Source of the DNA: Malacoraja senta
Lineage: Eukaryota
Direction of reading: 5' to 3'
NCBI GenBank assembly: GCA_038087875.1
Contig: CM075988.1
Coordinates: 4,960,001-5,024,000 of the forward strand
DNA length: 64,000 nucleotides
Every line of letters begins with the position of its first letter. The first letter of the stretch is position 1. Below the pieces are notes generated by a model, which saw only the letters and a program-made list of their open reading frames with translations, did not search any database and was not told the DNA's origin. This document shows positions 2,143 through 62,770 of this stretch, piece after piece. A program made the position numbers and the translations under genes.

Positions 2143-2407
2143 CATAGGTCATAGGAGCAGAATTAGGCCATTCGGCCCATCGAGTATACTCCGCCATTCT
2201 ATCATGCCTGATCTACCTTTCCCTCTCAACCCCATTCTCCTGCCTTCTCCCCATTACCTTTGACACCCATATTAATCACGAACCTATCAATCTCCGCTAT
2301 TAACTCTCCCATTACTGGAGACATCATATCCACATTCACTCTATCCAGGCTTTTCATTATTTGATAAGGTCCCCCCTCATCTGTCTAAACTAGTAAATAC
2401 AGGCCAA
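2143..2407 (-). mobile_element. CR1-type LINE 3' end fragment
   Basis: Reverse complement resembles the 3' UTR of the CR1 at 3640-3757 (atgattgaatggcggag...gggccgaatggcctaattctgctcctatgacctatg). Confidence 0.75.
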
Positions 2408-3757
2408 GATGGGATAGCAGCACATTTGGAAAATGGTGAAATCATTGGACAAAGTCAGCATGGATTTATGAAAGGTAAATCATGTCTGACGAATCTTATA
2501 GAATTTTTCGAGGATGTAACTAGTAGAGTGGATAAGGGAGAACCAGTGGATGTGTTATATCTGGACTTTCAGAAGTCTTTCGACAAGGTCCCACATAAGA
2601 GATTAGTATACAAACTTAAAGCACACGGTATTGGGGGTTCAGTATTGATGTGGATAGAGAACTGGCTGGCAAACAGGAAGCAAAGAGTAGGAGTTAACGG
2701 GTCCTTTTCAGAATGGCAGGCAGTGACGAGTGGGGTACCGCAAGGCTCAGTGCTGGGACCCCAGCTATTTACAATATATATTAATGATTTGGACGAGGGA
2801 ATTGAATGCAACATCTCCAAGTTTGCGGATGACACGAAGCTGGGGGGCAGTGTTAGCTGTGAGGAGGGTGCTAGGAGACTGCAAGATGACTTGGATAGGC
2901 TGGGGGAATGGGCAAATGCATGGCAGATGCAGTATAATGTGGATAAATGTGAGGTTATCCACTTTGGTGGCAAAAACAGGAAAGTAGACTATTACCTGAA
3001 TGGTGGCCGATTAGGAAAAGGGGAGATGCAATGAGACCTGGGTGTCATGGTACACCAGTCATTGAAAGTAGGCATGCAGGTGCAGCAGGCAGTGAAGAAA
3101 GTGAATGGTATGTTAGCATTCATAGCAAAAGGATTTGAGTATAGGAGCAGGGAGGTTCTACCGCAGTTGTACAGGGTCTTGGTGAGGCCACACCTGGAGT
3201 ATTGCGTACAGTTTTGGTCTCCTAATCTGAGGAAGGACATTCTTGCCATCGAGGGAGTACAGAGAAGGTTCACCAGACTGATTCCTGGGATGTCAGGACT
3301 TTCATATGAAGAAAGACTGGATAGACTTGGCTTGTACTCGCTAGAATTTAGAAGATTGAGGGGGGATCTTATAGAAACTTACAAAATTCTTAAGGGGTTG
3401 GACAGGCTAGATGCAGGAAGATTTTTCCCGATGTTGGGGAAGTCCAGAACAAGGGGTCACAGTTTAAGGATAAAGGGGAAATCTTTTAGGACTGAGATGA
3501 GAAAAACATTTTTTACACAGAGAGTGGTGAATCTCTGGAATTCTCTGCCACAGAATGTAGTTGAGGCCAGTTCATTGGCTATATTTAAGAGGGAGTTAGA
3601 TGTGGCCCTTGTGGCTAAAGGGATCAGGGGATATGGAGAGAAGGCAGGGATGGGATACTGAGTTGGATGATCAGCCATGATCATATTGAATGGCGGTGCA
3701 GGTGCGAAGGACCGAATGGCCTACTCCTGCACCTATTTTCTATGTTTCTATGTTTCT
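2408..3757 (+). mobile_element. 5'-truncated CR1 (HER1-like) LINE; RT and C-terminus
   Basis: QHGFMKGKSCLTNL, LDFQKSFDKVPH, GVPQGSVLGP, FADDTK, RPHLEYCVQFW motifs; (tttctatg)n tail at 3736-3757. Confidence 0.95.
2426..3661 (+). pseudogene. CR1 ORF2 reverse transcriptase remnant with one in-frame stop (3032-3034)
   Basis: ORFs 2426-3034 and 3047-3661 are in the same frame, separated by a TGA (probably from CGA). Confidence 0.9.
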
Positions 3758-3951: not shown

Positions 3952-4260
3952 TTTAGTTTAGTTTAGTTTAGAGATACAGCGCGGAAACAGACCCTTTGGC
4001 CCACCGAATTCGCGCCGACCCGTGATGCCCGCACACCAATACTATCCTACACACACTTGGTTCAATTGACAATTATACCAAGCCACTTAATCCACAAACC
4101 TGTACGTCTTTGGAGTGTGGGAGGAAACTGAAGATCTCAGAGAAAACCCACACAGGTCACGGGGAGAACGTACAAACCCTGTACAGATAGCGCCCGTGGT
4201 CAGGATCCAACCCGGGTCTCTGGCGCTTTAAGGCAGTGGCTCTACCGTTCCGCCCCATGG
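3952..4260 (-). mobile_element. tRNA-derived V-SINE (HE1-like)
   Basis: Reverse complement has B-box-like ggttggatcc, V-domain core and (taaac)n tail. Confidence 0.85.
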
Positions 4261-4999
4261 TATGACATAGGGGTTAAAGGGGAGAAATTGATGAAAGAAT
4301 GAGAAAATGGATGCAGGGGCCAGTCACCCAACAGTCCTTTCCCCCACATGCTATCCCTCTAGCAGATTATTTTTTGCTCCTGATTGTAGCAACCCATCTG
4401 CCAATTGAACCCTCCCAACTGTATCTGCCTATTGCTTACCAGGCTTTGTCCCGCTCCCAACATTTTTCCACGTTTCTCCCCCTCACCTCATTCAACTGAC
4501 CCAAAACGTTGCCTATCCATTCCTTCCAGAGATGGTGCTGACTAGCTGAGTGTGTTTTGCTCCAGATTCCAACATTTACAGCTCCTGGTGTACACAACTT
4601 GGGCAGTCTCCCATGTCTCTCCAAGCCTACTTTGGAGGGCTGGATAAAACACACAGTTGGGGTCTTAATTGCTCATCATTGTATTACTGTAACTCGCCTG
4701 GAGGCAGAGAACAAAAACTGCAATATTGGCTTATTATTATCACGTACTGACATGCAGTGAAAATGTTTGCTTTGCGTGCAATCCAGGCAAATCACACTGC
4801 AGCATAGACACAGAGTGCTGGAGTAACTCAGCAGGTCAGACGGCATCTCTGGAGAAAAAGAACAGGTGATGTTTTGGATCGGGTCTCTTCTTCTGTGAAA
4901 TTAGGGGGTGGGGGGGGGGGGAGAACTGGAAGCAGGAAAACAGGACCAAACAGGGCCAAAAATAAATGACCTCAGGCAGGGTGGTGCCCTGGTAGGCCC

Positions 5000-5525
5000 A
5001 TTGTGTAGGAAGGAACAGCAATTGCTGGTTTAAACCCAAGATAAACACAAAATGCTGGAGTAACTCAGCGGGACAGGCAGCATCTTTGGAGAGAAGGAAT
5101 GGGTGACGTTTCCGGTTGAACCCCTCTTCAGTCTGATGTCAGGGGAGAGGGAGATACATAGATAAGGAAGTGTAAGGTGTGAAACTAGGACAAAGGGAAT
5201 GGAGATCAAGGAAAACATAGAATAGATCATTGTCAGCTGGGAGAAGTTAACAACAACAAAGCAAACGGAGATAAAATGTAGTTGGAGACAGTAAGACTGG
5301 TCGGAGAACTGGGAAGGGTGTGGGGATAGTAGGTCCATTATTGGCGATGGAAGGTGTGATCTTGAGAGATACAATGTGGTGAACTGTGGAACTGCTGGAA
5401 CAACTAGGGTGAAGGAAAGGGGCTGGGGAAGGGAGGGCCAGAGGGATGGGGAGCGTTAGTAAAATGTAACTAAAATCAGAGAATTCAACGTTCATACCAC
5501 TGCATTGTGAGCTACCCAGCCGCTT
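5000..5525 (-). mobile_element. Penelope-like 3' end (ORF C-terminus GMNVEFS plus pLTR)
   Basis: Minus-strand MNVEFSDF matches the end of the Penelope ORF (GLNVEFTQF); degenerate hammerhead motif at about 5103-5133. Confidence 0.75.
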
Positions 5526-5728
5526 ACAAGCCTTCTGACAGTAGCACCTCTCCTTCTCCCTTGTCCAGTGTTCTACCTATTGTCACAAGCTTGAGTAACT
5601 AGAATAGAAATGGCTACTAACCCACCAATGTGAGAGCAACTAATTTGTGCAGAGGTTTCAATGGTACTATGTTATCACATGTACCTAGAAACAGTGAAAT
5701 TCTTTTGGATACAGTTCAGTAAAAATCT

Positions 5729-5783
5729 TGAATGAATGAATGAATGAATGAATGAATGAATGAATGAATGAATGAATGAATGA
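5729..5783. repeat. (TGAA)n microsatellite, probably the tail of a minus-strand LINE
   Basis: Tandem tgaa units followed by tactttatt (AATAAA on the minus strand). Confidence 0.9.
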
Positions 5784-5922
5784 TACTTTATTATCATGTG
5801 AAAGTCTTTGTTTTGCTACCATACACAAGTATGCAAAGAGTCACCACCTAAAGGGCACTGACAAAGTTACATGTGTTCAATGTAGTCCCAATGGTGCCTC
5901 TTTGTTCTCAGCGCACCCACCC

Positions 5923-6122
5923 NNNNNNNNNNNNNNNNNNNNNNNNNNNNNNNNNNNNNNNNNNNNNNNNNNNNNNNNNNNNNNNNNNNNNNNNNNNNNN
6001 NNNNNNNNNNNNNNNNNNNNNNNNNNNNNNNNNNNNNNNNNNNNNNNNNNNNNNNNNNNNNNNNNNNNNNNNNNNNNNNNNNNNNNNNNNNNNNNNNNNN
6101 NNNNNNNNNNNNNNNNNNNNNN
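5923..6122. other. Assembly gap (200 N)
   Basis: Run of N. Confidence 1.
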
Positions 6123-6439
6123 TCCTTGATCAGACTTTACTAGCTTTACATTGCACTAAAACATTATATCTTTATCATGTACAGTATGTATACACTGTAA
6201 ATGGCTCGATTGTAATCATGTTTTGTCTTTCTGCTGACTGGATAGCATGCAACAAAAGATTTTCACTGTACCTCAGTATGCGTGACAATAAACTAAACTA
6301 TACTAAAATACATTACATGGCTGCAGCTTTGAGCATCCAATGACCTATCCTATATTAATCACTTAAAATAACTCCTCATTAGAGCATTTTTACTTCCAGT
6401 AATAAAAAATTGATTCCTTAGAGAATAGCAGGTTCAAGG

Positions 6440-6965
6440 GTGATTGTCACAGTTACAGTTGTACAAGTTGTTTGTAGGGCCGAACTTGGCATATTGTATT
6501 CATTATGGCCACACTACTATAGTAAAGATGTCATTAAGTTGGAAAGAGCGCTGAGAAGATTTACAGGGATTTGGCCAAGATTCGAGAGCCTAAACTATTG
6601 CCGGGCTGAACGCTGATTGTATAGAGGTGTATACAATCATGAGGGGAATGGAAAAGGTGAATGCACAGATTATTTCTCCCAAGGTTGTGGAATGAACGAC
6701 TAGAAGGCATGGTTTAAGGTGAAAAGGGAAAGATTTAATAGCAACTTTTTATACAGATGGAGATGGGTATATGGAATAGGTTTCATGAGTAAATATTTGA
6801 GGCATGTAAATAACAATATATAAAAGATATTGGACAGGTACACGGATAGGAAACATTTAGGGAGATATGGGTCAAACGTGGGCAAATGGACCAGCATAGA
6901 TGGGCATCTGGGTCAACATGGATGAGCTGGGACCATATAGTGTCTGTTTCCATGGATTTGACTAT
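6440..6965 (+). mobile_element. Old degraded CR1 3' fragment
   Basis: Degenerate match to CR1 C-terminal coding and 3' UTR (ggtttaaggtgaaaagggaaagatttaatag). Confidence 0.65.
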
Positions 6966-7660
6966 GATTTTCTACTCTCCTTCACACTGCACTTTGATAT
7001 GGTCACAATCTTATTTAATTGAACGCCATTCCTTTGGTGATTTCCCTAACTTTGGTGATATTTCTAACTTCACTGCTCTGAGAGAGTTTTTAGTTAAGAG
7101 GTACAGTGCGGAAACAGGCCCTTCAGCCCACCGAGTCCGCACCGAGCAGCGATCCAAGCCCACTTACATTATCCTACACACTCTAGGGACATTTTTACAT
7201 TAATACAAGCCAATTAACCAATAAACCTGTACGTCTTTGGAGTGTGGAAGGAAACTGAAGCTCTCAGAGAAACCCCCTCAGGTCATGCGGAGAACACACA
7301 AACTCGGTATTGAACCCGGGTCTCTGGCGCTATAAGGCAGTAGCTCTACCACTATGCCACCGTGCTGCCCATTATTTAAAAAAAGGTTGGACAGACTTGG
7401 ATTGTTTTCTCTGGATTGCCAGAGGTTGGGGGGAAACCTGCTAGAAGTGTATAAAATTATGAGAGGCATAATAATGAGTGGACAGTCAGATTTTTTCCCC
7501 AGGATGGGAATAAACAAATATTAAAGGGCCTAGCTTTAATGTGAGAGGGGTTAAGCAGGATATGCAGGGCATGTTTTTTTGCACAGAGGGTGGTGAGTGC
7601 TTGGAACATGCTGCCAGGATTGGTGGTTGAAGCAGATACATTAGTGGCATTTAATATGCT

Positions 7661-7948
7661 TTTGTTTTGTTTAGTTTAGAGATACAGCGCGGAAACAGGC
7701 CAGCGATCCCCACACATTAACACTACCCTACACACACTAGGAACATTTTTTTTTAACACATACACCAAGCAAATTAACCTACATGCTGTATGTCTTTGGA
7801 GTGTGGGAAGATCTCGGAGAAAACTCACACGGTCACGGGGAGAGCGCACAAAATCTGTACAGACAGCACCCGTAGTCGGATTGAACCCGGGTTTCCGGCG
7901 CTGCAAACGCTGTAAGGCAGCAGCTCTACCGCTGCGGCACCGTGGCTG
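7661..7948 (-). mobile_element. V-SINE (HE1-like); another copy at about 7092-7370
   Basis: Reverse complement of the SINE consensus, with head and tail. Confidence 0.85.
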
Positions 7949-8288
7949 CACTGAAAGGCATATATACAGAGAATGGAAAGATATGGGCAATGTGCCTGAA
8001 GGGACATGGCATCACATGCAGCACAACATTGTGGGCCAAAGGGCCTGTTCTTGTGCTGTACTGTTCTATGTTCAATGTTTTATGTTCAAAACCGATCTCT
8101 GTTATTCCTGGAACTTGTTTAAAAGGACACTTTTAAAAAGAGCACTACTATTTAAAAAGGCACTATTATTGCCCTTTTCCTTGAAAGGGCTAAAATAAAT
8201 TTGCCTGTGCACATATTTGAAATGTCCCCCCTTTCCAACAGGAAGCACTATGTTTTTCTTGTGTACGTTCAGAAACCAAAGTCACCAA

Positions 8289-8603
8289 GGGCGGTCACGG
8301 CGGCGCAGTGGTAGAGTTGCTGCCTTTCAGCGAATGCAGCGCCGGAGATCCGGGTTCGATCCCAGCTACGGGTGCTGTCTGTACGGAGTTTGTTCGTTCT
8401 CCCGTGACCTGCGTGGGTTTTCTCCGAGATCTTCGGTTTCCTCCCACACTCCAAAGACGTACAGGTTTGTAGATTAATTGGCTTGGTAAATGTAAAATTG
8501 TCGCTAGTGGGCATAAGATAGTGTTAATGTGCGGGATCGCTGGTCGGTGCGGACCCGATGGGCCGAAGGGCCTGTTCCACGCTGTATCTCTAAACTAAAC
8601 TAA
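8289..8603 (+). mobile_element. Full-length V-SINE (HE1-like)
   Basis: A box cggcgcagtgg, B box ggttcgatcc, V-domain ggagtttg...ttctcccgtg...ggtttcctcccacactccaaaga, CR1-like tail gggccgaagggcctgtt, then (taaac)n. Confidence 0.9.
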
Positions 8604-9276
8604 CATAACTTTAAGGTTTATTACAGACCTTTGGAACTTCCTAACAAGTAGCCCTCAATTTCGCTCTCACTATTTGGACATTGTGATTGTGCTAGAAGAT
8701 AGCACAAAAAGCTGGAGAGATGGAATGGGTGATGTTTTGGGTTGAAACCTTATTCAGCGACTGTACTCCTTGTTACTCAACCCAAACAAATACACCTGTA
8801 GCTGGAGCTGTCCAGTTTATAGCCTGTCTATTTATAACGATCAATCAATGATATCACACCTTCGAAAACAATGTTTTCTCCCTTAGCCTTCCTGGTAACT
8901 AGACATATAAAGAACCCATTCTAATACTTGTGGTGCAGTTCTCTATTAATGTAACTGTGTTACAATCCTGTGGTATCTAGTGCTTGGGGCTATCACCTTG
9001 TTAGTTACACCTGTGCACATTAACACACATATGTTTTCTAGTCATTGTTGCTGGTTTTGTTAATCTGACACTGCAATTTTTTGGCATATGTCTCTTCACT
9101 GCCCAGATCTGATTTCATTGCTGATTCTTGATTGAATTTGCTGGTTCCCACTTCTCCAAGGCATTAATATAAAACCCTCCTGAACATTACCGAGTCGCCT
9201 CTCAGATTCAGGAGCACTCATTCTTTGGACGTTGATGTTCTTTCCCCCAAATCTAGACCCAAGACGTTGGAGGATA

Positions 9277-9510: not shown

Positions 9511-9938
9511 AAGTTGGAGACATCTTTGCAACTACACATGGAAAAGCATTCTCTTCTCTCCTTTTTTATACAATCATGAACAGATAGCATAAAGAGCATT
9601 TTTTAGATTAATACTCCAAGGATGTGATCTGAAAGTAGATACAAAATGCTGCGGGGAGTAACTCAGATTGTCATTAAGTGACGTTTCGGGTCGAGACCTT
9701 TCTTCAGATAGTGTTTCAGATGTGATCTGGAAACCTTTTCTCAGAATGTCATTAAGTCATAAGGTCATAAGAATAGGAGAAGAATTAGGCCATTTGGCTC
9801 ATTCAATCATGGCTGATCTACCTCTCCCTCTTGTTTATAAGTGATCCACAACAACACACACATGGTGAAATCAATCTTTATTCCATAGGCAAACAGGAAC
9901 ATTCAAACAGCCAGCTGCTCGCGTCTGGCTCTGCTGGC

Positions 9939-10354
<416 letters not shown>

Positions 10355-10824
10355 GTTTTTTTCAGCTCTGCAGTTGAGAAGGATTCAAACAGCTTTTCAA
10401 GGACGTTGTCGATGGGGAAGGAACAGAGGCAGAGGGGCTTCATGGTCTAACTTATTGTTGGATTGGTGAAACTTTTCTCTGCTCTAGGAATTCTCCACAA
10501 GTGCGGACATTCCGGAGATATTTTTCCATTGTGGAGGGTGCGGTTGTCGTTGGCGGGCTGCCAAGGTGGATGGTGTTAGAGGGAACGGAAAAAAGGCATT
10601 TTGCTCCGGCGGATGCCGGGTTTAATGTGAAGATGGTACTGTTGAGTCTGGAAAGAATGGGATAGAGCTTCCCAAAGCTGCTGTCGGCTGTGGACGTCTT
10701 TGGGGATTTTCTGGCTGTAGCTGGAGGCTTCAGAGTTCTGCTACTTGTTGACTGTGACTGTTTGCAGGAGTTAACGTGGAGCTGAGCTGCCGGGGCGATT
10801 GGAGCTGGTTGTGCCTCTGTCAGG

Positions 10825-17409: not shown

Positions 17410-17832
17410 GACATAGGTTGTAGGTGAAAGGAAAAATATTTAACAGGAATTTGAGGGGTAACCTTTTCACACAAAGGGTGGTGGGTGTATGGAACAAGCT
17501 GCCAGAGGATGTTGTTGAGGTTGGGACTATCCCAATGTTTAAGAAACAGTTAGACAGTTAGATAGGTCTGAAGAAGGGTTTCGACCCGAAACGTTGCCTA
17601 TTTCCTTCGCTCCATAGATGCTGCCTCACCCGCTGGGTTTTTCCAGCATTTTTGTCTACCTTCGATTTTACAGCATCTGCAGTTCCTTATTAAACATAGA
17701 TAGGACAGGTTTGGAGGGATATGGACCAAACACAGGCAGGTGGGACTAGTGTAGCTGGGACATGTTAGCCGGTGTGGGCAAGCTGGGCCAAAGGGCCTGT
17801 TTCCACACTCTATCACTATGACTATCACTCTA
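17410..17832 (+). mobile_element. CR1 3' fragment interrupted by a pLTR/hammerhead unit (17567-17696, TSD tagatagg)
   Basis: CR1 C-terminal sequence resumes after a duplicated tagatagg (17559-17566, 17697-17704). Confidence 0.8.
17562..17601 (+). ncRNA. Candidate minimal type I hammerhead ribozyme
   Basis: ATAGGT-CTGAAGA-A-GGGT-TTCG-ACCC-GAAA-CG-TT-GCCTAT: 6-bp stem I, core boxes, 4-bp stem II with UUCG loop, palindromic ACGT stem III. Confidence 0.6.
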
Positions 17833-20554: not shown

Positions 20555-21245
20555 AAATGGGCATCATAAAGTGACTTGTCTTATTTCACAATCAGTTTTA
20601 ATGCGCTGTTCATCCTTATCCTCCATTATACTGTGCAACAACTCAGTGATATTATTAACCCTAGTTAGACACAAAAAGCTGGAGTAACTCAGCGGGACAG
20701 GCAGCATCGCTGGAAAGAAGGAATGGGTGGCGTTTCGGGTTGAGACCCTTCTTCAGAATGGTGTTTGTCCCGCTGCCTATCCCGATGCTGCCTGTCCCAT
20801 TGAGTTACTCCAGCTTTTTGTGTCTATCTTCAGTTTAAACCAGCATCTGCAGTTCCTCCCTACATATTATTAACCGTAGCACCAGAGAGGCAATATACTG
20901 AGCTGGAATCACAATTGTAGAATGCCCTGCCTGCTCCTTTACCCATAGATTTCCCATTCATTCGTGTTCTCCTGTCTTGTGGCTTTGAGACATGCACAGC
21001 TTGGATTTTGACTGCACCTCTCAAGGGATGTCTTCGCACCTATTCTCAGAACTAATTACTGGGGCACCATTGTGATACAGCAGTAGAGCTGCTGCCTTAC
21101 AGCACCAAAGACCCAGGTTGAAGCCTGACTACGGGTGCTGTCATTGTGGAGTTTGTACGTTCTCCCCATCACCTGCGTGGGTTTTCTCCGGGAGCTCGGG
21201 TTGCCTCCCACACTCCAAAGACGTACAGCTACATCTGTACTCCAG
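20555..21245. repeat. Copy A of a local duplication (old CR1 ORF1 fragment plus SINE head)
   Basis: Colinear with 24789-25285, including the same SINE junction. Confidence 0.85.
20665..20863. mobile_element. 199-bp inverted pLTR/hammerhead insertion with 16-bp TSD
   Basis: atattattaaccctag (20649-20664) / atattattaaccgtag (20864-20879); absent from the paralogous site at 24930-24945. Confidence 0.9.
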
Positions 21246-38059: not shown

Positions 38060-38656
38060 TTGCACTATTGACTCATTTTACACCTCACGCTGCCTCGGCA
38101 AGGCCAGCAGCATAATCAAGGATGAGTCACACCCTGGCCACTCCCTCTCCTCCCCCCTCCCATCGGGCAAAAGGTACAGAAGTGTGAAAACGCACACCTC
38201 CAGATTCAGGGACAGTTTCTTCCCAGCTGTTATCAAGCAACTGAATCACCCTACCACAACTAGAGAGCAGTGCTGAACTACTACTTTGGAGACCCTCGGA
38301 CTTTCCTTTGTTTAAGAAAGAACTGCAGATGCTGGAAAAATCTAAGGTAGACAACAATGCTGGAGAAACTCAGTGGGTGAGGCGGCATCTATGGAGCAAA
38401 GGGTCGAGACCCTTGGGTCACCTATTCCTTCGCTCCATAGATTCTGCCTCACCCGCTGAGTTTCTCCAGCATTTTTGTCTACCTCGGACTATCCTTGATT
38501 AGACTTTGCTGGCTTTACCTTGCACGAAACTTATTCCCTTATCATGTATCTGTAAATGGATAGATAGTAATCATGGATTGTCTTTCTGCTGTCTGTTTAG
38601 CAATGCAACAGAAGCTTTTCGCCGTACCTCAGTACACGTGACAATAAACTAAACTA
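38060..38656 (+). mobile_element. Rex1/Babar-like LINE 3' end, interrupted by a pLTR inverted pair (about 38309-38481)
   Basis: TSRCLGKASSIIKDESHPGH...LPSGKRYRSVKTHTSRFRDSFFPAVI; tail gtgacaataaactaaact; duplicated cctcggact. Confidence 0.82.
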
Positions 38657-43337: not shown

Positions 43338-46282
43338 CTAGTGCCATCTACCTGCACTCAGACCATAACCCTCCATTCCTTTCCCGTCCATATACCCATC
43401 CAATCTAGTTTTAAAGGATAACATCGAACCTGCCTCCACCGCTTCCACTGGAAGCTCATTCCACACAGCTACCACTCTCTGAGTAAAGAAGTTCCCCCTA
43501 ATGTTCCCCCTAAACTTCTGTCCCTTAATTCTCAAGTCATGTCCCCTTGTTTGAATCTTCCCTACTCTCAATGGGAAAAGCTTATCCACGTCCACTCTGT
43601 CTAACCCGCTCATAATTTTAAAGACCTCTATCAAGTCCCCTCTTAACCTTCTGCGCTCCAAAGAATAAAGACCTAACTTGTTCAACCTTTCTCTGTAACT
43701 TAGTTGCTGAAACCCAGGCAACATTCTAGTAAATCTCCTCTGTACTCTCTCTATTTTGTTGACATCCTTCCTATAATTAGGCGACCAAAATTGTACTCCA
43801 TACTCCAGAATTGGCCTCACCAATGCCTTGTACAATTTTAACATTACATCTCAACTTCTATATTCAATGCTCTGATTTATAAAGGCCAGCACACCAAAAG
43901 CTTTCTTTACCACCCTATCTACATGAGATTCCACCTTCAGGGAACTATGCACAGTTATTCCTAGATCCCTCTGTTCAACTGCATTCCTCAATTCGCTACC
44001 ATTTACCGTGTACGTCCTATTTTGATTTGTCCTGCCGAGATGTAGCACCTCACATTTGTCAGCATTAAACTCCATCTGCCATCTTTCAGCCCACTCTTCC
44101 AAATGGCCTAAATCTCTCTGTAGACTTTGAAAATCTACTTCATTATCCACAACACCACCTATCTTAGTATCATCTGCATACTTACTAATCCAATTTTCCA
44201 CACCTTCATCCAGATCATTGATGTACATGACAAACAACAGTGGACCCAACACAGACCCCTGAGACACCCCACTAGTCACCGGCCTCCAACCTGACAAACA
44301 GCCATCCACCATTACTCTCTGGCATCTCCCATTCAGCCACTGTTGAATCCATCTTGCTACTCCACCATTAATACCCAACAATTGAATCTTCTTAACCAAC
44401 CTTCCATGAGGAACCTTGTCAAAGGCCTTACTGAAGTCCATATAAACAACATCCACTGCTTTACCCTCATCAATTTCCCTAGTAACATCTTCGAAAAATT
44501 CAAGAAGATTAGTCAAGCATGACCTTCCAGGCACAAATCCATGTTGACTGTTCCTAATCAGACCCTGCTTATCCAGATGCTTATATATATTATCTTTAAG
44601 TATCCTTTCCATTAATTTGCCCACCACTGACGTCAAATTAACAGGTCTATAATTGCTAGGTTTACTCTTCGAATCCTTTTTAAACAACGGAACAACATGC
44701 GCAGTACGCCAATCCTCCGGCACTATTCCCGTTTCTAATGACATTTGAAATATTTCTGTCATAGCCCCTGCTATTTCTACACTAACTTCCCTCAATGTCC
44801 TAGGGAATATCCTGTCAGGACCTGGAGACTTATCCGTTTCATATTTTTCAAAAGTGTCCGCACCTCCTCTTCTTTGAATCTCACAGTTTCCATTGCTACT
44901 CTGCTCGTTTCCCTTACCTCACATAATTCCATGTCCTTCTCCTTCGTGAATACCGAAGAAAAGAAATTGTTCAATATCTCCCCCATCTCTTTTGGCTCTG
45001 CAGATAGCTGTCCACTCTGACTCTCTAATGGACCGATTTTATTCCTTGTTATCCTTTTGCTATTAATATAGCTGTAGAAACCCTTTGGATTTACTTTCAC
45101 CTTACTTGCCAAAGCAACCTCATATCTTCTTTTAGCTTTTCTAATTTCTTTCTTAATATTCTTTTTACATTCTTTATACTCCTCAAGCACCTCATTTACT
45201 CCATGCTGCCTATAATTATTGTAGATCTCTCTCTTTTTCCGAACCAAGTGTCCAATTTCCCTTGAAAACCATGGCTCTTTCCATTTTTTACTATTTCCTT
45301 TCAACCGAACAGGGACATAAAGATTCTGTACTCTTAAAATTTCACCCTTAAATGTCCTCCATTTTTCTTCTACATCCTTCCCATAAAACAACATGTCCCA
45401 ATTCACTCCTTTTAAATCCTTTTGCATCTCCTCGAAGTTAGCCTTTCTCCAAACAAAAATCTCAACCCCAGGTCCAGTTCTGACCCTCTCCATAATTATA
45501 TTGAAACTAATGGTATTGTGATCACTGGACCCGAAGTGCTCCCCGACGCATACCTCCGCCACCTGCCCTGTCTCATTTCCTAACAGGAGGTCCAGCACTG
45601 CCCCTTCTCTAGTAGGTACCTCTATGTATTGCTGCAAAAAACTATCTTGCACACATTTTACAAACTCCAAACCATCCAGCCCTTTTACAGAATGTGTTTC
45701 CCAGTCTATGTGTTGAAAATTGAAATCTCCCACAATCACTACCTTGTGCTTACTACTAATATCTGCTATCTCCTTACATATTTGCTCTTCCAATTCTCGC
45801 TCCCCATTTGGCGGTCTATAATACACCCCTATAAGTGTTGCTACACCTTTCCCATTTCTCAGTTCCACCCAAATAGCCTCCCTAGACGAGCCCTCTAATC
45901 TATCCTGCCAAAGCACTGCTGTAATATCTTCCTTGACAAGCAATGCAACACCCCCACCTCTTGCCCCTCCAATTCTATCACCCCTGAAGCAACGAAATCC
46001 TGGAATATTTATTTGCCAATCACAGCCCTCCTGCAACCATGTTTCACTGATCGCCACAACATCATACTTCCAGGTGTCAATCCAGGCTCTAAGCTCATCC
46101 ACCTTTCTTACAATGCTCCTAGCATTAAAATATACACATTTAAGAAACCCACCACCACTTATTCTCTGTTTATTATCTTTTTCTTCTTTCTCCCCTACAT
46201 TTTGGGTCCGAGTGCTTCCCTTCTCTGCCTCCTGCCTCCCACATTTTCCACTAGCTTTCTCTATTTGAGTCCCTCCCCCCAA
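43338..46282 (-). pseudogene. CR1 ORF2 (APE endonuclease + RT) with a frameshift near 44837 and a stop at 43851
   Basis: YFNARSI, ISETWL, YYRPP, GDFN, LDLLL, SDH; NYRPVNLTS, QHGF, MDFSKAFDKVPH, QGSVLGP, YADDTK. Confidence 0.95.
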
Positions 46283-46287
46283 CCGTT

Positions 46288-46580
46288 CTAGTTTAAAGTC
46301 TCCCCAGTAGCCTTTGCAAATCTCCCCTCCAGGATATTGGTCCCCCTCGGGTTCAAGTGCAACCCGTCCTTTCTGTACAGGTCACTCCTTCCCCAAAAGA
46401 AATCCCAATGATCCAGAAATTTGAATCCCTGCCCGCTGCACCAGTTCCTCAGCCACGCATTTATCCTCCACCTCACTCCATTCCTACTCTCACCGTCACG
46501 TGGCACAGGTAGTAATCCTGAGATTGTTACCTTTGTAGACCTTCTCCTTAACTCTCCTCCCAACTCCCTAAATTCTCCTT
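46288..46580 (-). pseudogene. CR1 ORF1 C-terminal SGNH/esterase-like domain fragment
   Basis: VTISGLLPVPR...NAWLRNWC..GFKFLDHW...DGLHLN (DxxH block). Confidence 0.85.
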
Positions 46581-46764
46581 TCTTCTCTTTTTCTGTGTGT
46601 AGGATAGAACTTGTGTACGGGTGGACGTGGACTCGGTGGGCCGAAGGGCCTGTTTCCGCGCTGCATCTCTAAACTACACTAAGAACATGAAATCCATCCT
46701 CCAAGTTGCCTCTAACCATCAATTTCTTGACTGTTCCTCCTGTTTTACAATTAGTCTATCTCTG

Positions 46765-47459: not shown

Positions 47460-47815
47460 ACATTCTAAAGGACGAAAGAATGGGGATCTGGAAATTAAAA
47501 GTTATCGAAATGTTGAAGAGCATGTGAGATGTCTTGGATGTAGATTGGAAAGGACTGGACAAGTGCTGGGGTGGGGACACACTCATGATGGAGTCAAGGT
47601 TTCTGGAGGTGAGATCGGTGGTGCAGAAACAAGTAGGAACCATGGTTCTACCAGGGCAGTCGTGGTTGTGGATTTCGGGAAGGAGATAAAAATGGGCAAC
47701 GATAAGGTTGGAGGTTATGAAGGAGAGACTATCAGAGGTGATGCGATCGTTGATGTTCTGGGAGACGTTGGCCTGATGTTCGTCTGGGGGGGGGTCATGG
47801 TCAAAGGTTAGGTCT
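47460..47815 (-). mobile_element. Degraded Penelope RT N-terminal fragment
   Basis: FYLLPEIHNHDCPGRTMV resembles the PLE FYLLPKIHK..PGRPIV motif. Confidence 0.75.
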
Positions 47816-47854
47816 ACTGAAGTCTGAACAAGGGTCTCGACCCGAAACATCACG

Positions 47855-48095: not shown

Positions 48096-48119
48096 TCCTA
48101 TTCCTTTTCTCCAGTGACG

Positions 48120-49528
48120 CTTCTCTCCGCGCATTCCACTCTCTAGGCCCTCACCCCCTCATCTTCACCATGGACGTCCAGTCACTGTACACCTCCATCC
48201 CCCACCAGGATGGTCTCAAAGCCCTCCGTTTTTTCCTCGACCGTAGAAGCAATCTATACCCGGCCACTGACACCCTCCTCCGCCTAGCGGAGCTGGTACT
48301 TACACTTAATAACTTTTCATTTGACTCCTCCCATTTCCTCCAAATACAAGGCGTAGCTATGGGCACACGCATGGGCCCCAGCTACGCCTGCCTCTTTGTC
48401 GGGTACGTAGAACAATCCTTGTTCAATGCGTACCAGGGCCCCATCCCCGACCTCTACCTCCGCTACATCGATGATTGTTTTGGTGCCACATCCTGCACCC
48501 ACACACAACTGACTGACTTCATCCGCTTCACCACCAACTTCCATCCGGCACTCAAATACACCTGGACCATTTCCGACACTTTCCTACCATTCCTTGACCT
48601 CACTATCTCCATCGCAGGTGATAGACTCCTTACCGACATCCACTACAAACCTACCGACTCCCATGGCTATCTGGACTACACTTCTTCCCACCCTGCTTCC
48701 TGTAAGGACTCCATCCCCCACTCCCAATTCCTCCGTCTACGCCGCATCTGCTCCCAGGATGAGGCGTTCCACACCAGGGCATCTGAAATGTCCTCATTCT
48801 TCAGGGAACGGGGGTTCCCCTCCTCCACCATAGATGAGGCTCGCACCAGGGTCTCTGCCATACCCCGCAACACTGCTCTCTCTCCCCATCCCCCCACTCA
48901 CAACAAAGGCAGAGTCCCCCTAGTCCTCACCTTTCACCCCACCAGCCGTCACATACAACAAGTGATCCTCCGTCAGTTTCGCCACCTCCAACGTGACCCC
49001 ACCACTCGCCACATCTTCCCATCTCCCCCTATGTCTGCCTTCCGCAAAGACCGCTCCCTCCGTAACTCCCTTGTCAATTCTTCCCTTCCCTCCCGCTCCA
49101 CCCCTTCCCCGGGCACTTTCCCTTGCAACCGCAAGAGATGCAACACTTGTCCCTTCACTTCCCCCCTCCACTCCATTCAAGGACCCAAGCAGTCGTTCCA
49201 GGTGCGACAGAGGTTCACCTGCATCTCCTCCAACCTCATCTATTGCATTCGCTGCTCTAGATGCCAGCTGATCTACATCGGTGAGACCAAGCGGAGGCTT
49301 GGCGATCGTTTCGCCGAACACCTCCGGTCGGTCCGCAATAACCAACCTGAACTCCCGGTGGCTCAGCACTTCAACTCCCCCTCCCATTCCGTATCTGACC
49401 TCTCTGTCCTGGGTCTCCTCCATGGCCACAGCGAGCAACACCGTAAATTGGAGGAAATGCACCTCATATTCCGCTTGGGCAGTCTACATCCTGGTGGCCT
49501 GAACGTTGAATTCACCCAATTCTGCTAG
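48120..49528 (+). CDS. Penelope-like element ORF, 5'-truncated: reverse transcriptase + GIY-YIG endonuclease
   Basis: TMDVQSLYTSIP, GVAMGT, YLRYIDD, LPFLDL, YKPT; CNRKRCNTC linker; NLIYCIRC...IYIGETKR.L..RF.EH; no internal stops. Confidence 0.93.
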
Positions 49529-49740
49529 CCCTGGCTGTCCCCTCCCCTTCATCAGCCATCTGGTTGTCTCCTCCCCTCCCCCAGCCCTCGGGCTCCTCCT
49601 CCGCCTTTTCCTTTTTTCCTTTCTTCTCCCCACCCCCTATCAGTCTGAAGAAGGGTTTCGGCCCGAAACGTTACCTATTTCCTTCGCTCCATAGATGCTG
49701 CTGCACCCGCTGAGTTTCTCCAGCATTTTTGTGTACCTAC
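49529..49740 (+). mobile_element. Penelope 3' UTR/pLTR with hammerhead motif (49642-49676)
   Basis: agtCTGAAGAaGGGTttcgGCCCGAAACGTTacc directly downstream of the ORF. Confidence 0.85.
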
Positions 49741-50930
49741 GCTTCCTGACCCGCTGAGTGACTCCAGGTTGTTGTAGGCCTATCTTTGGCAGATATGAAC
49801 AGGTGTCTGAGAGTCGGCACCTGATCTCATCACGCAAGAGTTATTTGAATTGGACATTGGTTCTTTCTTGGTTGATGTGAAACCTCTCTCAGTAGAAGAC
49901 CCTTTCCTCATCCTGAGGAGCCAGTGTCTCTTAGAACATGGAACAATACATCACAGGAACAGGCCCTCGGGCCCACAAAGTCCTTGCCGAACATAATGCC
50001 ACGTTAAATTAATCTCATCTGTGTGCGCATGATCCATATCTCTGCGTTCCCTGTGTATCCATCTAAAACGTTCTCAAATACCACTATCATATCTGCCTTC
50101 ACCACCACCCCTGGCCACATGTTCAAGGCACCCACCACATTTTATTGAAAAGCCTTGTCCCGCATATCTCTTTTAAACATAAAAAACATAGAAAATGGGT
50201 GCGGACGTAGGCCATTCGGCCCTTTGAGCCATTCCATATGATCATGGCTGATCATCCAAAATCAGTACCCCATCTTTCTCCATTTAATGATTTAAAATCG
50301 ATTTCCCCTGCACCAATTTTGAGATATGCATTCAGCTCTCTGATCTTATTGTCTCTGCTAATTTGAATGTGGCTCAGTTAGTAATTGAGAGATTAGTACT
50401 TTTGTACTGTATTAAATCAGGTTAGATTCGAGCTGCACATATTCTTCCAGCAGAACCTTTGTCTTCGTCCTCTCTGTGGCATTTCTTCCCACGTGGACCG
50501 TGACAACTGTATCATATCCCTCCCATTCCAAGTTCTCCCCAGCCCCAAAGAGATATCCTTAGCCATCACTGGGAAGGCAGTGCTGGAATAACTCAGCAAG
50601 TTAGGCAGCATCTCAGGAGAACATGGATAGGTTACATTTCAGGTCCCAACCCAAACATCATATACCTATGTTTTCCAGAGATGCTGCCTGATCTGCCGAG
50701 TTACTCCAGCACTTTGTGTCCTTTTGTGTCCACCAGCATCTACAGTCTCTTGTTTCTACTGGGAAAGCAAAGCAACCTTCAAGACTTTGCTTGTGCTAAG
50801 AACAGTATCTATTTCCGCCACTACACTGTCCCCTATCACCATTACATTCCTTGCACTTGCCCAGTTTGAATGGCTCTCTGTAACACTGTGCCGGGTCCAT
50901 TTGCTTCTCCCTGCTCTCTGCCATCTCTCA

Positions 50931-59340: not shown

Positions 59341-60351
59341 GTGATACTATGTCTTGCGGCATTATCTCTTTTGCAGCATGTGAATATTTCAAGTGTCTTG
59401 TAACAGATAACACTTCACCCGTTATCAAAATGAAGATTGAACGAACTGTTGGAGCAGGGACACAAGGAAAAAAATCAGATTATTGAAAGAAAATAGAGAC
59501 CCGTCTCCCTTGACAGCTTTCTGCAGGGTGCAGATCTTCATTCACAGTCAGCGGGGTCTATGGAGCTGAATCTTAAGGCTTTGATTGTAGCTTAAGAAGA
59601 TAACCTTCGCCAGATAGGACAGATTGATATCAGCAGCAAACTGCAAGCTGTGTCATGCTTTCCTGATCAACCCACTTTAGAAAACTAACCCTGTGTTACA
59701 GAGTGTTTGACTCAGTAATCCCACTTGGCTGTGCATCTTTGCTGCTGTTTTAATTTTTGTATGTAATTTTTTTGTTCATGGAAATCAGAGGAAAACTGAA
59801 GACGTTCTGAGCTCTCCACAATTCCCACAACCTTTTATTCCTTGAACAGTAAAGAACTTGTATTGACTGAAGAAGTAGCCCCGGGTTTCTGAGAGGACAG
59901 GTCCTGTATGCCACATTGTATTTAAGGTTTTTATTTCTTCATGTACGTTCCATAAATTTATAGTTAATATGGGGCAATGCTTACAACCCAGCGGTGTGAA
60001 TATTGATTTCTCTAACTTCAAGTAACCCTTGCATCCCCTCTCTCTTCATCCCTCCCCCACCCAAGTCATACAAGCTCCAAATTTGCCTTGTTGAGTCTCA
60101 TTGTCGGATAACAACAGCTATCATCGTTACTTTTTTGCATATATTTCATTCATTTGTTCTGTATCTCTCTACATCACCGTCTATATCTCTCGTTTCCCTT
60201 TCCCCTGACTCTCAGACTGAAGAAGGGCTCGGCCTGTAACGTCACCTATTCCTTTTCTCCACAGATGCTGCCTGACCAGCTGAGTTACTCCAGCATTTTG
60301 TGACTATCTTCAGTTTAAGCCAGCATCTGCAGCACCTTCCTACATATTTAC

Positions 60352-61200
60352 AATTTAGACGAAGGAATTAAATGTAACATCTCCAAGTTATTTAGACAAA
60401 GGAATTAAATGTAACATCTCCAAGTTTGCAGATAACTCAAAGCTGGGTGGCAGTGTGAGCTGTGAGGTGGATGCTATGAGGCTGCTGGGTGACTTGGGTA
60501 GATTGAGTGAGTGGGCAGATGCATGGCAGATGCAGAATAATGTGGATAAATGTGAGGTTATCCACTTTGGTGGAAAGAACAAGAAGGCATATTATTATCT
60601 GAATGGTGTCAGATTAGGAAAAGGGAAAGCGTAACGAGACCTGGGTGTGTTTGTACATCAGTCACTGAAATAAGCATGCAGGTACAGCAGGTAGTGAAGA
60701 AAGCAAATGGCATGTTGGCCTTCATAGCGGGAGGATTTGAGTTTAGGAGTAAGGAGGTCCTACTGTAGTTGTACAGGGTCCTGGTAAGACCTCTTCTGGA
60801 GTATTGTGTGCAGTTTTGGTCTCCTAAATTGAGGAAGGACATTCTTGCTCTTGAGGGAGTGCAGCGTAGGTTCACCAGGTTAATTCTTGGGATGGCGGGA
60901 CTGACAAATGATGAAAGAATGGATCGACTGGGTTTATATTTACTGGAATTTAGAAGGATGAGAGGCTATCTTATAGAAACATATAACATTCTTAATGGAT
61001 TGGGCAGGCTAGATGCAGGAACAATGTTCCCAATGTTGGGGGAGCCAAGAACCAGGGGTCACAGTTTAGGAATAAGGGGTAGGCAGTTTAGGACTGAGAT
61101 GAGGACATTTTTTTTCACGCAGAGAAGTGTGAATCTGTGGAATTCTCTGCCCCAGAAGGCAGTGGAGGCCAATTCACTGGATATTTTCAAGAGAGAGAAA
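60352..61200 (+). mobile_element. Degraded CR1 RT fragment with a short tandem duplication at its 5' end
   Basis: Close paralogue of 2790-3600 with several stops; atttagac.aaggaattaaatgtaacatctccaagtt occurs twice (60352-60427). Confidence 0.9.
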
Positions 61201-61605
61201 TAGCTTACGTAGGTAGGTCTGTAGTCAATAGTCAGCCACGCCAGCTAAGCATGGCCAATTACCTTTCCTGGAGGTCACTTTTGTGGCGTCACCTCTGGAG
61301 GCAAATAATTGATCAAAATAGCGGGTTGGAACCCTACATCAGGACTCAGAAAGTGGCAGGGTGTTAATTAGTTTAAAGAGGTACGAGAGAGCTGTATGAT
61401 AGGGGCTGGTAGGTGATAGGTAGAACCAGGTGGGAAGGAGTCAGATAAGAAGATGGACGCAGATGAGGCAGGGGGAGAGTAGGATGGAGATGTGAAATTA
61501 GTTAAGGGAGGGATGCTGGGCAGATGCGACCAGATTGAAGTGGGGGAAAGTAAGGACAGGCAGAGGAAGAAGAAACCTGGTGGATGGATACCTGGGCGAT
61601 GGGCG

Positions 61606-61924: not shown

Positions 61925-62421
61925 TTGGTAGTGAGGGCGATAAATCTAGGTAGTTGTGTGGGACTGGGGAATGCAAAGATGAACAGAGGGAGAGAGAGCC
62001 TCAGAGGGCAGGTAGGTGTTGGACAGGGACACAAGGGTTGTAGATGACCTGAACCTTTAATGATTTATGCTCTTTAGGTTTTGGACTTGTCAGCAGACAG
62101 GCAAGATTGCAAAGTCCCCCATATATTTGGGCATCAATGACAATCTTGTCGAGGCAGGAGGTCACCAATGAGGAACAGCAGAATATATGGTTTGAATCCT
62201 ATGCTAATGACAGAGAAGTGAATCTCTGAAGCACAGGAGAAAACCACAAGTTACATAACATGTCATGGTGTTTGAAACATTTCTCTTGGATTTACCTGGC
62301 CACAGAGACCACATCAGTAGTTCCTCTCACTGGTGTACAGTCACGCCTTTAATTCAGTAAATCTTCTCCCGACGGGGAAACAGTCCATCCGAGTGTATTT
62401 AGGCAAGGGATTCCCAGCAGT

Positions 62422-62770
62422 AGACACAAAATGCTGGAGTAACTCAGCGGGTCAGGCAGCACCTCTGGAGAGAAGGAATGAGTGACGTTTCGGGTCGAGA
62501 CCCTTCTTCAGATTCACAGCAGTGGTGTGAAAAGAGATGACTAGATAACTCCCAAGGTCTGATGTGTTGGAAGCAACTGCAGATGCTGGTTTAAACTGAA
62601 GATATACACAATAAGGTGGAGTAACTCAGCGAGTCAGACAGCATATCTGGAGAGAAGGAAGAGGTGATGTTTCGGGTCAAGAAGTCTGAAGAAAGGCATG
62701 GAACTTCATCTATTCCTTTTCTCCAGAGATGTTGTATGACCCGCTGAATTATTTCAGCTTTTTGTGTCTA
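62422..62770. mobile_element. Two pLTR/hammerhead insertions: 62422-62510 (minus) and 62562-62770 (inverted pair)
   Basis: TSDs gattc(c/a)cagcagt (62409-62421, 62511-62523) and tcccaaggtctg (62550-62561, 62771-62782). Confidence 0.85.

Follow-up and report, generated by a model that had tools for sequence, protein, structure and literature searches.

The closest described relatives of the repeat analysed here are the minimal hammerhead ribozymes (min-HHRs) of Penelope-like elements (PLEs). As described in PMC4209133, these consist of a U-rich flank followed by CUGANGA-H, a helix II closed by G10.1-C11.1, GAAA, a C-G palindrome and UH; they are located in the pseudo-LTR (pLTR) of the element, thousands of solo copies have been published there, and pairs on opposite strands are found close together. 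The repeat present in the window, i.e., the whole 64-kb stretch of Malacoraja senta DNA that was analysed, is like them in all these points. Its helix II of 4 bp and helix I of 2 bp are at the short end of the range (2–6 bp for helix I). Its density within the window is about one per 1.1 kb, compared with 4,000–9,000 motifs per genome in the coelacanth and Xenopus, although the latter figures come from a strict descriptor and are not like for like (PMC4209133). Two of the three supplementary files of PMC4209133 were searched for sharks, skates, Callorhinchus and Leucoraja without an entry being found, and in the literature searched (subscription papers, Repbase and Dfam lying outside its scope) we found no description of the hammerhead of this chondrichthyan family.

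At the level of the protein the likeness is to the EN+ PLEs of the Neptune clade, in which RT, a CX2-5CxxC linker and GIY-YIG follow each other in this order (PMC8557442). The insertions are also like those described for EN+ PLEs, with heavy 5' truncation, an inverted 5' copy, a 30–40-nt tail on one end and target-site duplications (TSDs) of 7–12 bp (PMC3846280, PMC8557442); unlike in the described Neptune PLEs, truncation is extreme here and concentrated at the ribozyme. With PAc, the Poseidon element of Anolis carolinensis, the repeat shares two 3' ends that are one tail-length apart and lie about 65–105 nt past the cut site, apparently also the use of uncleaved RNA as template, and the lack of RNA-seq ends at the cut site; however, PAc belongs to a different clade, Poseidon, and its ORF is reported to start inside the ribozyme (PMC11167929). 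Non-LTR retrozymes are likewise short, non-coding, pLTR-related units with a type I hammerhead (10.64898/2026.07.22.740005, PMC7229834), but their definition calls for at least two consecutive units in tandem, every one of them with a complete hammerhead (10.64898/2026.07.22.740005), whereas here we found dispersed solo copies and head-to-head pairs, and no intact tandem. The role of the hammerhead in PLEs is described as open and their replication as poorly understood (PMC8557442, PMC11167929). The kind of element found here, Penelope-like with a minimal hammerhead, has already been described, and the fresher point is the large number of copies that begin at the first bases of the motif.

The abundance of this short repeat, already pointed out in a first-pass annotation of the sequence, was clear in the 64-kb window, where the motif pattern gave 24 matches at ≤3 mismatches (0 in 100 shuffles) and 34 at ≤6 mismatches (0.1 expected). 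All nine positions named in that annotation carry the motif. The unit is not, however, the 35 nt proposed there; it extends for about 93 nt from C3, with an optional tail of about 40 nt. We number the repeat from C3 as position 0, so that the predicted cleaved template would begin at +28. A profile built from 23 copies (BLAST was also used to find the longer unit) matched 56 segments between positions 5 and 62785, 27 on the plus and 29 on the minus strand, which confirms the presence on both strands; together they make up 9.9% of the window (6328 bases). Copies resemble each other from the CTGAAGA box to about +90, and the resemblance goes on for some 40 nt more in 18 of the 45 copies reaching that region, with 11 profile matches left out as too short to score. 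The family has two 3' ends about 40 nt apart, the first of them at +93. No match to the repeat was found in the viral contigs searched. The idea that the repeat might code for an N-terminus was discarded, since its 43-aa open frame matched just two unnamed proteins among three candidates and a 1-nt indel separates the subfamilies. We consider it probable that the repeat is the 3' end (pLTR) of several related autonomous Penelope-like subfamilies, likely of the Neptune clade, of which very short, 5'-truncated insertions remain, starting at the minimal hammerhead motif or close to it and now mostly decayed.

Other mobile elements share the window with the repeat. Between 10786 and 16750 (plus strand) there is an apparently near-intact LINE, presumably of L1/Tx1 type, in which upstream frames with a CxxC-H-C knuckle are followed by an open frame of 1220 codons that encodes endonuclease, RT and zf-RVT domains. 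A long LINE copy whose endonuclease and RT lie in consecutive frames is found at 43338–46668 (minus), and shorter fragments at 2276–3661 (plus) and 60769–61203 (minus); we take these three to be of CR1 type. An assembly gap of 200 N is located at about 5920–6120, and a long GA-rich simple repeat at about 9870–10400.

The copy that first drew attention, at 49642–49676, reads AGT-CTGAAGA-A-GGGT-TTCG-GCCC-GAAA-CG-TT-ACCT. We place it near the 3' end of a single 1615-bp insertion (48124–49738) nested in an older stub, because an identical 7-bp duplication, ACGCTTC, is found on the plus strand to the left (48117–48123) and to the right (49739–49745) and the two flanking sequences, taken together without the insertion, align to a further copy, 1612, of the repeat (score 84, against a shuffle maximum of 44 in 500). 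The insertion starts with a Penelope-like ORF (48124–49528, plus strand) containing an RT core, a CX4CX2C linker (CNRKRCNTC) and a GIY-YIG endonuclease, identified by its homologues, by weak Pfam matches (RVT_1 and GIY-YIG, both below the curated cut-offs) and by the linker. It covers residues ~338–801 of an 803-aa relative and is therefore 5'-truncated. There were 679 homologues at E≤1e-20, the best named ones coming from whale shark, stingray, bamboo shark and zebra shark with 64–68% identity, which points to a cartilaginous fish as the likely host, and a CX2-5CxxC linker was located within the last 200 residues in 117 of the 120 homologues listed. A linker of the CX4CX2C type is a sign of Neptune or Nematis, not of Poseidon (PMC8557442), and the parent element is likely of Neptune type, as judged from this linker motif, which Nematis shares. 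Downstream of the ORF comes the 3' UTR or pLTR (49529–49643, plus), with a pyrimidine tract (pyrimidine fraction 0.92 at -30..-5) that ends in CAG, a candidate splice acceptor. The minimal type I hammerhead motif itself, recognised by sequence, consensus fit and covariation in related families, occupies 49643–49674 (plus) and is made up of CUGAAGA, a bulged A, a 4-bp helix II with a UUCG loop, GAAA and the ACGU palindrome. As had been noted before, it lies directly 3' of the RT/GIY-YIG ORF, 117 nt past the last base of the stop codon (49528). Helix I is formed here by 2 bp (G49643 and T49644 with A49673 and C49674), and the consensus predicts a cut after 49672. The conserved stretch of about 65 nt after the motif (49675–49738, plus) ends at the first family 3' end, +93, and the tail is absent.

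The Penelope origin and the minimal type I hammerhead that had been proposed for this repeat are both upheld by an exact fit to the published min-HHR consensus, including the loop-less ACGU helix III, the extra A after A9 and the predicted cut after GUC/GUU (PMC4209133). Copy 49645 has every element of the core, i.e., CUGANGA, the bulged H, a helix II closed by G10.1-C11.1, GAAA, a palindromic loop-less helix III and UH, and it sits in a pLTR beside a PLE ORF. The 2-bp helix I (GU/AC) of the family was missing from the first-pass annotation and shows no covariation within the window. The comparison with Rfam suggested there turned out negative: over the window there was no match at the gathering score, and around the flagged locus a search at E≤10 gave four unrelated chance matches with no hammerhead among them.

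Independent evidence was obtained from metagenome contigs, which we scanned with a degenerate core and which provided at least 121 loci. Among the 121 listed, 21 hit a PLE ORF, and at 15 listed loci the motif is located downstream of the ORF end and on the same strand, 76–136 nt away in 13 and 580–690 nt in two (loci L001 and L002 are one contig). The related set (128 matches listed, 122 of them with enough flank) forms 24 single-linkage families, some being splits of one family. The helix I positions were not constrained by the search pattern, whereas helix II pairs 1–3 were fixed by it and hence are uninformative. Pair 1 of helix I is kept in 24 of the 24 families, pair 2 in 22, pair 3 in 17 and pair 4 in just nine, with changes on both sides of the helix. 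In 29 aligned rows 41 cells were changed on both sides, a value as high as this appearing in 0 of 500 shuffles (relatedness inflates the counts), and the covariation score was 0.42, compared with at most 0.12 for slid controls. Because helix I covaries across related families, we take the hammerhead fold to be under selection in this motif class. Covariation had been looked for in both stems, and it is present for helix I in the 24 related families, while stem II has no compensatory change at the family level in the window; the GGGT/GCCC wobble reported for stem II does occur, but in just two of 43 rows, most of the variation being CpG decay. One of the contigs (L001, 1060–3609) carries, in a different host, the same architecture: its 5'-truncated PLE ORF has an inverted motif at the 5' end and is followed, after 136 nt, by a motif in direct orientation. 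In addition, the read-through C-terminus of a named zebra shark protein (P0005), SLMKGLRPKRQ, is what the motif with CUGAUGA would encode; this protein suggests that the ORF–motif arrangement is common to elasmobranchs.

Most of the copies have decayed. Of the 37 rows that span the core, six are intact (one with G.U at 10.1) and 31 fail through decay, and an intact core together with at least 2 bp of helix I was found in three copies, 17568, 35185 and 49645. Of the nine copies that had been listed as examples, four (31809, 35406, 20756 and 341) have a damaged core. The CpG positions of the motif, including the catalytic G12 and the CG of helix III, are 70% conserved, against 77% for downstream CpG. 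At non-CpG positions the conservation of stem II (0.91) and of GAAA/U16.1 (0.93) resembles that of the downstream columns (0.87–0.915); the value for the CUGAAGA box is above them (0.963), which may be due to clipping of the local alignments at their 5' edge or to selection. None of the six same-strand neighbours within 250 bp in the 64-kb window has two intact motifs. The dispersed copies are likely passive. A cutting of host pre-mRNA or a formation of circles, as had been envisaged, finds no support in the small number of intact cores and of copies that also keep at least 2 bp of helix I, in the absence of an intact tandem pair from the window, in the 27:29 strand ratio or in a predicted monomer fold that is not a hammerhead.

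Several copies illustrate the range of conditions. A short solo copy of the same subfamily as the flagged one (17567–17683, plus strand) starts at -1 and has a tail and an 8-bp TSD: TAGATAGG. At 17560–17603 (plus) the letters of its target site happen to lengthen helix I to 8 bp (G.U pairs included) and the core is intact; copy 17568 is the best natural candidate for a cleavage assay. Another short solo copy (62420–62511, minus) has an intact core, a TSD and no tail, and starts at about C3. A longer stub that belongs to another subfamily (59954–60348, plus) contains the ORF's C-terminus, the UTR, a decayed motif and a tail. At 47474–47853 an older frameshifted PLE RT fragment (minus) overlaps a motif on the plus strand that is cut short at about +32.

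For the RNA evidence five of 24 runs were used, and summed contig depths serve as a rough ratio and not as copy numbers. In about 6% of one polyA run, X24, from another organism and with most reads <95% alike, there was no place where many molecules begin or end, a weak test of cleavage. The repeat unit was covered about 10 times as deeply as the ORF, and both mate directions contributed about equally, a pattern that fits passive read-through. Over the ORF, at 48900–49500, first mates of X24 were ~1.5–3 times more often on the plus than on the minus strand, and in the motif unit the two strands were about even; if this is a library of the usual strandedness, the ORF-derived RNA would be mainly antisense. 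Back-jump joints of roughly unit length appear in relatives' data, in contigs of runs X1 and X4 and in X24 reads, and may reflect genomic tandems or circular RNA.

All the hallmarks of an EN+ PLE insertion, i.e., 5' truncation, an inverted 5' copy, an optional tail and a TSD, are present among the copies. The 26 neighbour pairs within 250 bp comprise 13 head-to-head, seven tail-to-tail and six tandem pairs. Ten of the head-to-head pairs were tested, and four had a flanking repeat of 9–12 bp, against five of 90 mismatched pairings; the tail was found on one arm alone in about 8–9 of the ten. An example with the tail on one arm and a 12-bp TSD is located at 20661–20863 (both strands): ATATTATTAACC. 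In another head-to-head pair the junction (38399–38414) coincides with the very centre of the palindrome of helix II. For solo copies the excess of TSDs of at least 7 bp was weak (three of 15, against 6.7% of 210 null pairings), and the TSDs of three of them place the starts at about -1, 0 and -7. Of the 33 copies that include C3, 19 lose homology within about 7 nt of it and 14 carry upstream UTR (one of the latter, 31809, was assigned by eye). Another 19 profile matches start between +1 and +51, 15 of them between +1 and +20, and many of these are partners in palindromic pairs. None of the 56 profile matches has its start in the stretch from +21 to +34, around the position expected for a cleaved template (+28). 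Because the starts cluster at the motif and none lies at +21 to +34, we infer that the templates were uncut and that the ribozyme is where synthesis came to an end or doubled back. This fixed starting point is the one lead here with mechanistic value.

Is the motif still a ribozyme, and are its many copies an element in their own right? It is quite unlikely that the likeness to a hammerhead is vestigial or coincidental, the motif being a conserved cis-signal for RT/EN without cleavage in this lineage. The negative Rfam search would agree with such a signal, and so would the folding predictions, in which none of seven stretches folds as a hammerhead monomer (stability against shuffles z -1.2 to 0.6) and the modelled hammerhead dimer lies 8–27 kcal/mol above the co-fold minimum; transposition of PAc in vitro is also reported not to need cleavage (PMC11167929). 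Nevertheless, the exact consensus fit (PMC4209133) and a helix I covariation that no shuffle reached, far above the slid controls, speak for a hammerhead, and that of PAc cleaves with protein and shows C3/G8 rescue (PMC11167929). The RNA motif with which the repeat begins, reduced to its minimum, is likely self-cutting. As to the copies, the first-pass annotation saw in them a distinct non-autonomous ribozyme-bearing retroelement, a view that finds no support here; they are best explained as 5'-truncated ends of several autonomous Neptune-type subfamilies, short copies being interleaved with those linked to an ORF or UTR. ORF ends are found upstream of five more copies (60217, 51024, 22180, ~52570 and 5131), with at least three different UTRs; a single clade of short copies was rejected (p-AU 4e-5, 27 vs 15 rows), label changes between short and long copies on the tree were 13, against 12.5 when shuffled, and copy 49645 groups with four short copies (support 95/95). 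The tree, from 42 of the 56 profile matches (rows <65 letters and one badly decayed row were left out, and CpG columns removed), is poorly resolved, with 82 columns and 26 of 39 branches unresolved. Solo pLTRs can be re-mobilised in trans (PMC3846280), which would leave the same interleaving of short and long copies and counts against truncation as the best explanation; the sharp 5' start (19 of 33), unlike random truncation, does the same. A self-amplifying SINE- or retrozyme-like element, with solo or tandem ~94-nt units that would be transcribed, might be cut and made circular, and would rely on the Neptune RT for their copying in trans, is nonetheless unlikely. It would suit that sharp start, the action of pLTRs in trans (PMC3846280), the ratio of about nine stubs per ORF end (56 matches vs six ORF ends), the joints from 49729–49732 back to 49641–49648 in contigs of X1 and X4 and, in 265 reads of X24, from 60303 back to 60238, and the report of tandem retrozymes derived from pLTRs in one chondrichthyan (10.64898/2026.07.22.740005). 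However, the short copies form no separate clade, none of the six tandem neighbours has two intact motifs, there is no start at +28 and no permuted copy in the alignment, the joints could be genomic tandems, and cleavage was reported in just one of nine Xenopus dimers (10.64898/2026.07.22.740005).

We put forward, tentatively, that the first base of the motif is a programmed boundary of Neptune replication, with the folded or protein-bound hammerhead acting as a roadblock that makes the RT halt or turn round, or, in these fishes, with a splice acceptor fused to helix I that sets the edge of the template and switches the ribozyme on. It is very unlikely that the 5' edge is specifically a 3' splice site (a pyrimidine tract and CAG before U) at which splicing completes helix I with sequence from a short first exon, sets the ends of many cDNAs and switches the ribozyme. 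In the 13 long copies the pyrimidine fraction at -30..-5 is 0.58–0.92 and eight keep AG at -3/-2, the unspliced helix I has just 2 bp, the TSD of copy 17568 ends exactly at -2, and the spliced 75-nt intron of D. virilis Penelope ends at the 5' end of helix I (PMC2377424), all of which speak for an acceptor. Yet AG within -6..-1 was found in none of the 24 related families, no GT..AG joint into the site was seen among 15 of 84 and 15 of 160 joints listed, the short copies lack a common upstream exon, and a U-rich 5' flank with a 2-bp helix I already occurs in published min-HHRs (PMC4209133).

For the copies as truncated ends of autonomous elements, we propose a mechanism modelled on what is described for PAc of the anole (PMC11167929). 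After a nick made in the target by the GIY-YIG domain, the RT would begin within an uncleaved RNA, at either of two positions some 65 and 105 nt beyond the cut site. In most cases it would halt or turn round on meeting the ribozyme, which would leave solo stubs and palindromic pairs. Cleavage by the ribozyme would be no more than weak, in dimeric form or with assistance from protein, and would take place in the tandem transcript of the autonomous element.

As a ribozyme discovery this has little weight, since the motif, its location and many solo copies have been in print since 2014 (PMC4209133). Its value lies elsewhere: a stub every kilobase or so amounts to a very large natural record of the RT, with its two starting sites and, at the ribozyme, its stops and fold-backs, on templates that appear uncut. 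Much of this DNA may consist of PLE remnants that are under-annotated. If the programmed boundary is true, it would explain how one element seeded about one tenth of this DNA with ribozyme stubs, and it would give the PLE hammerhead a role besides cutting.
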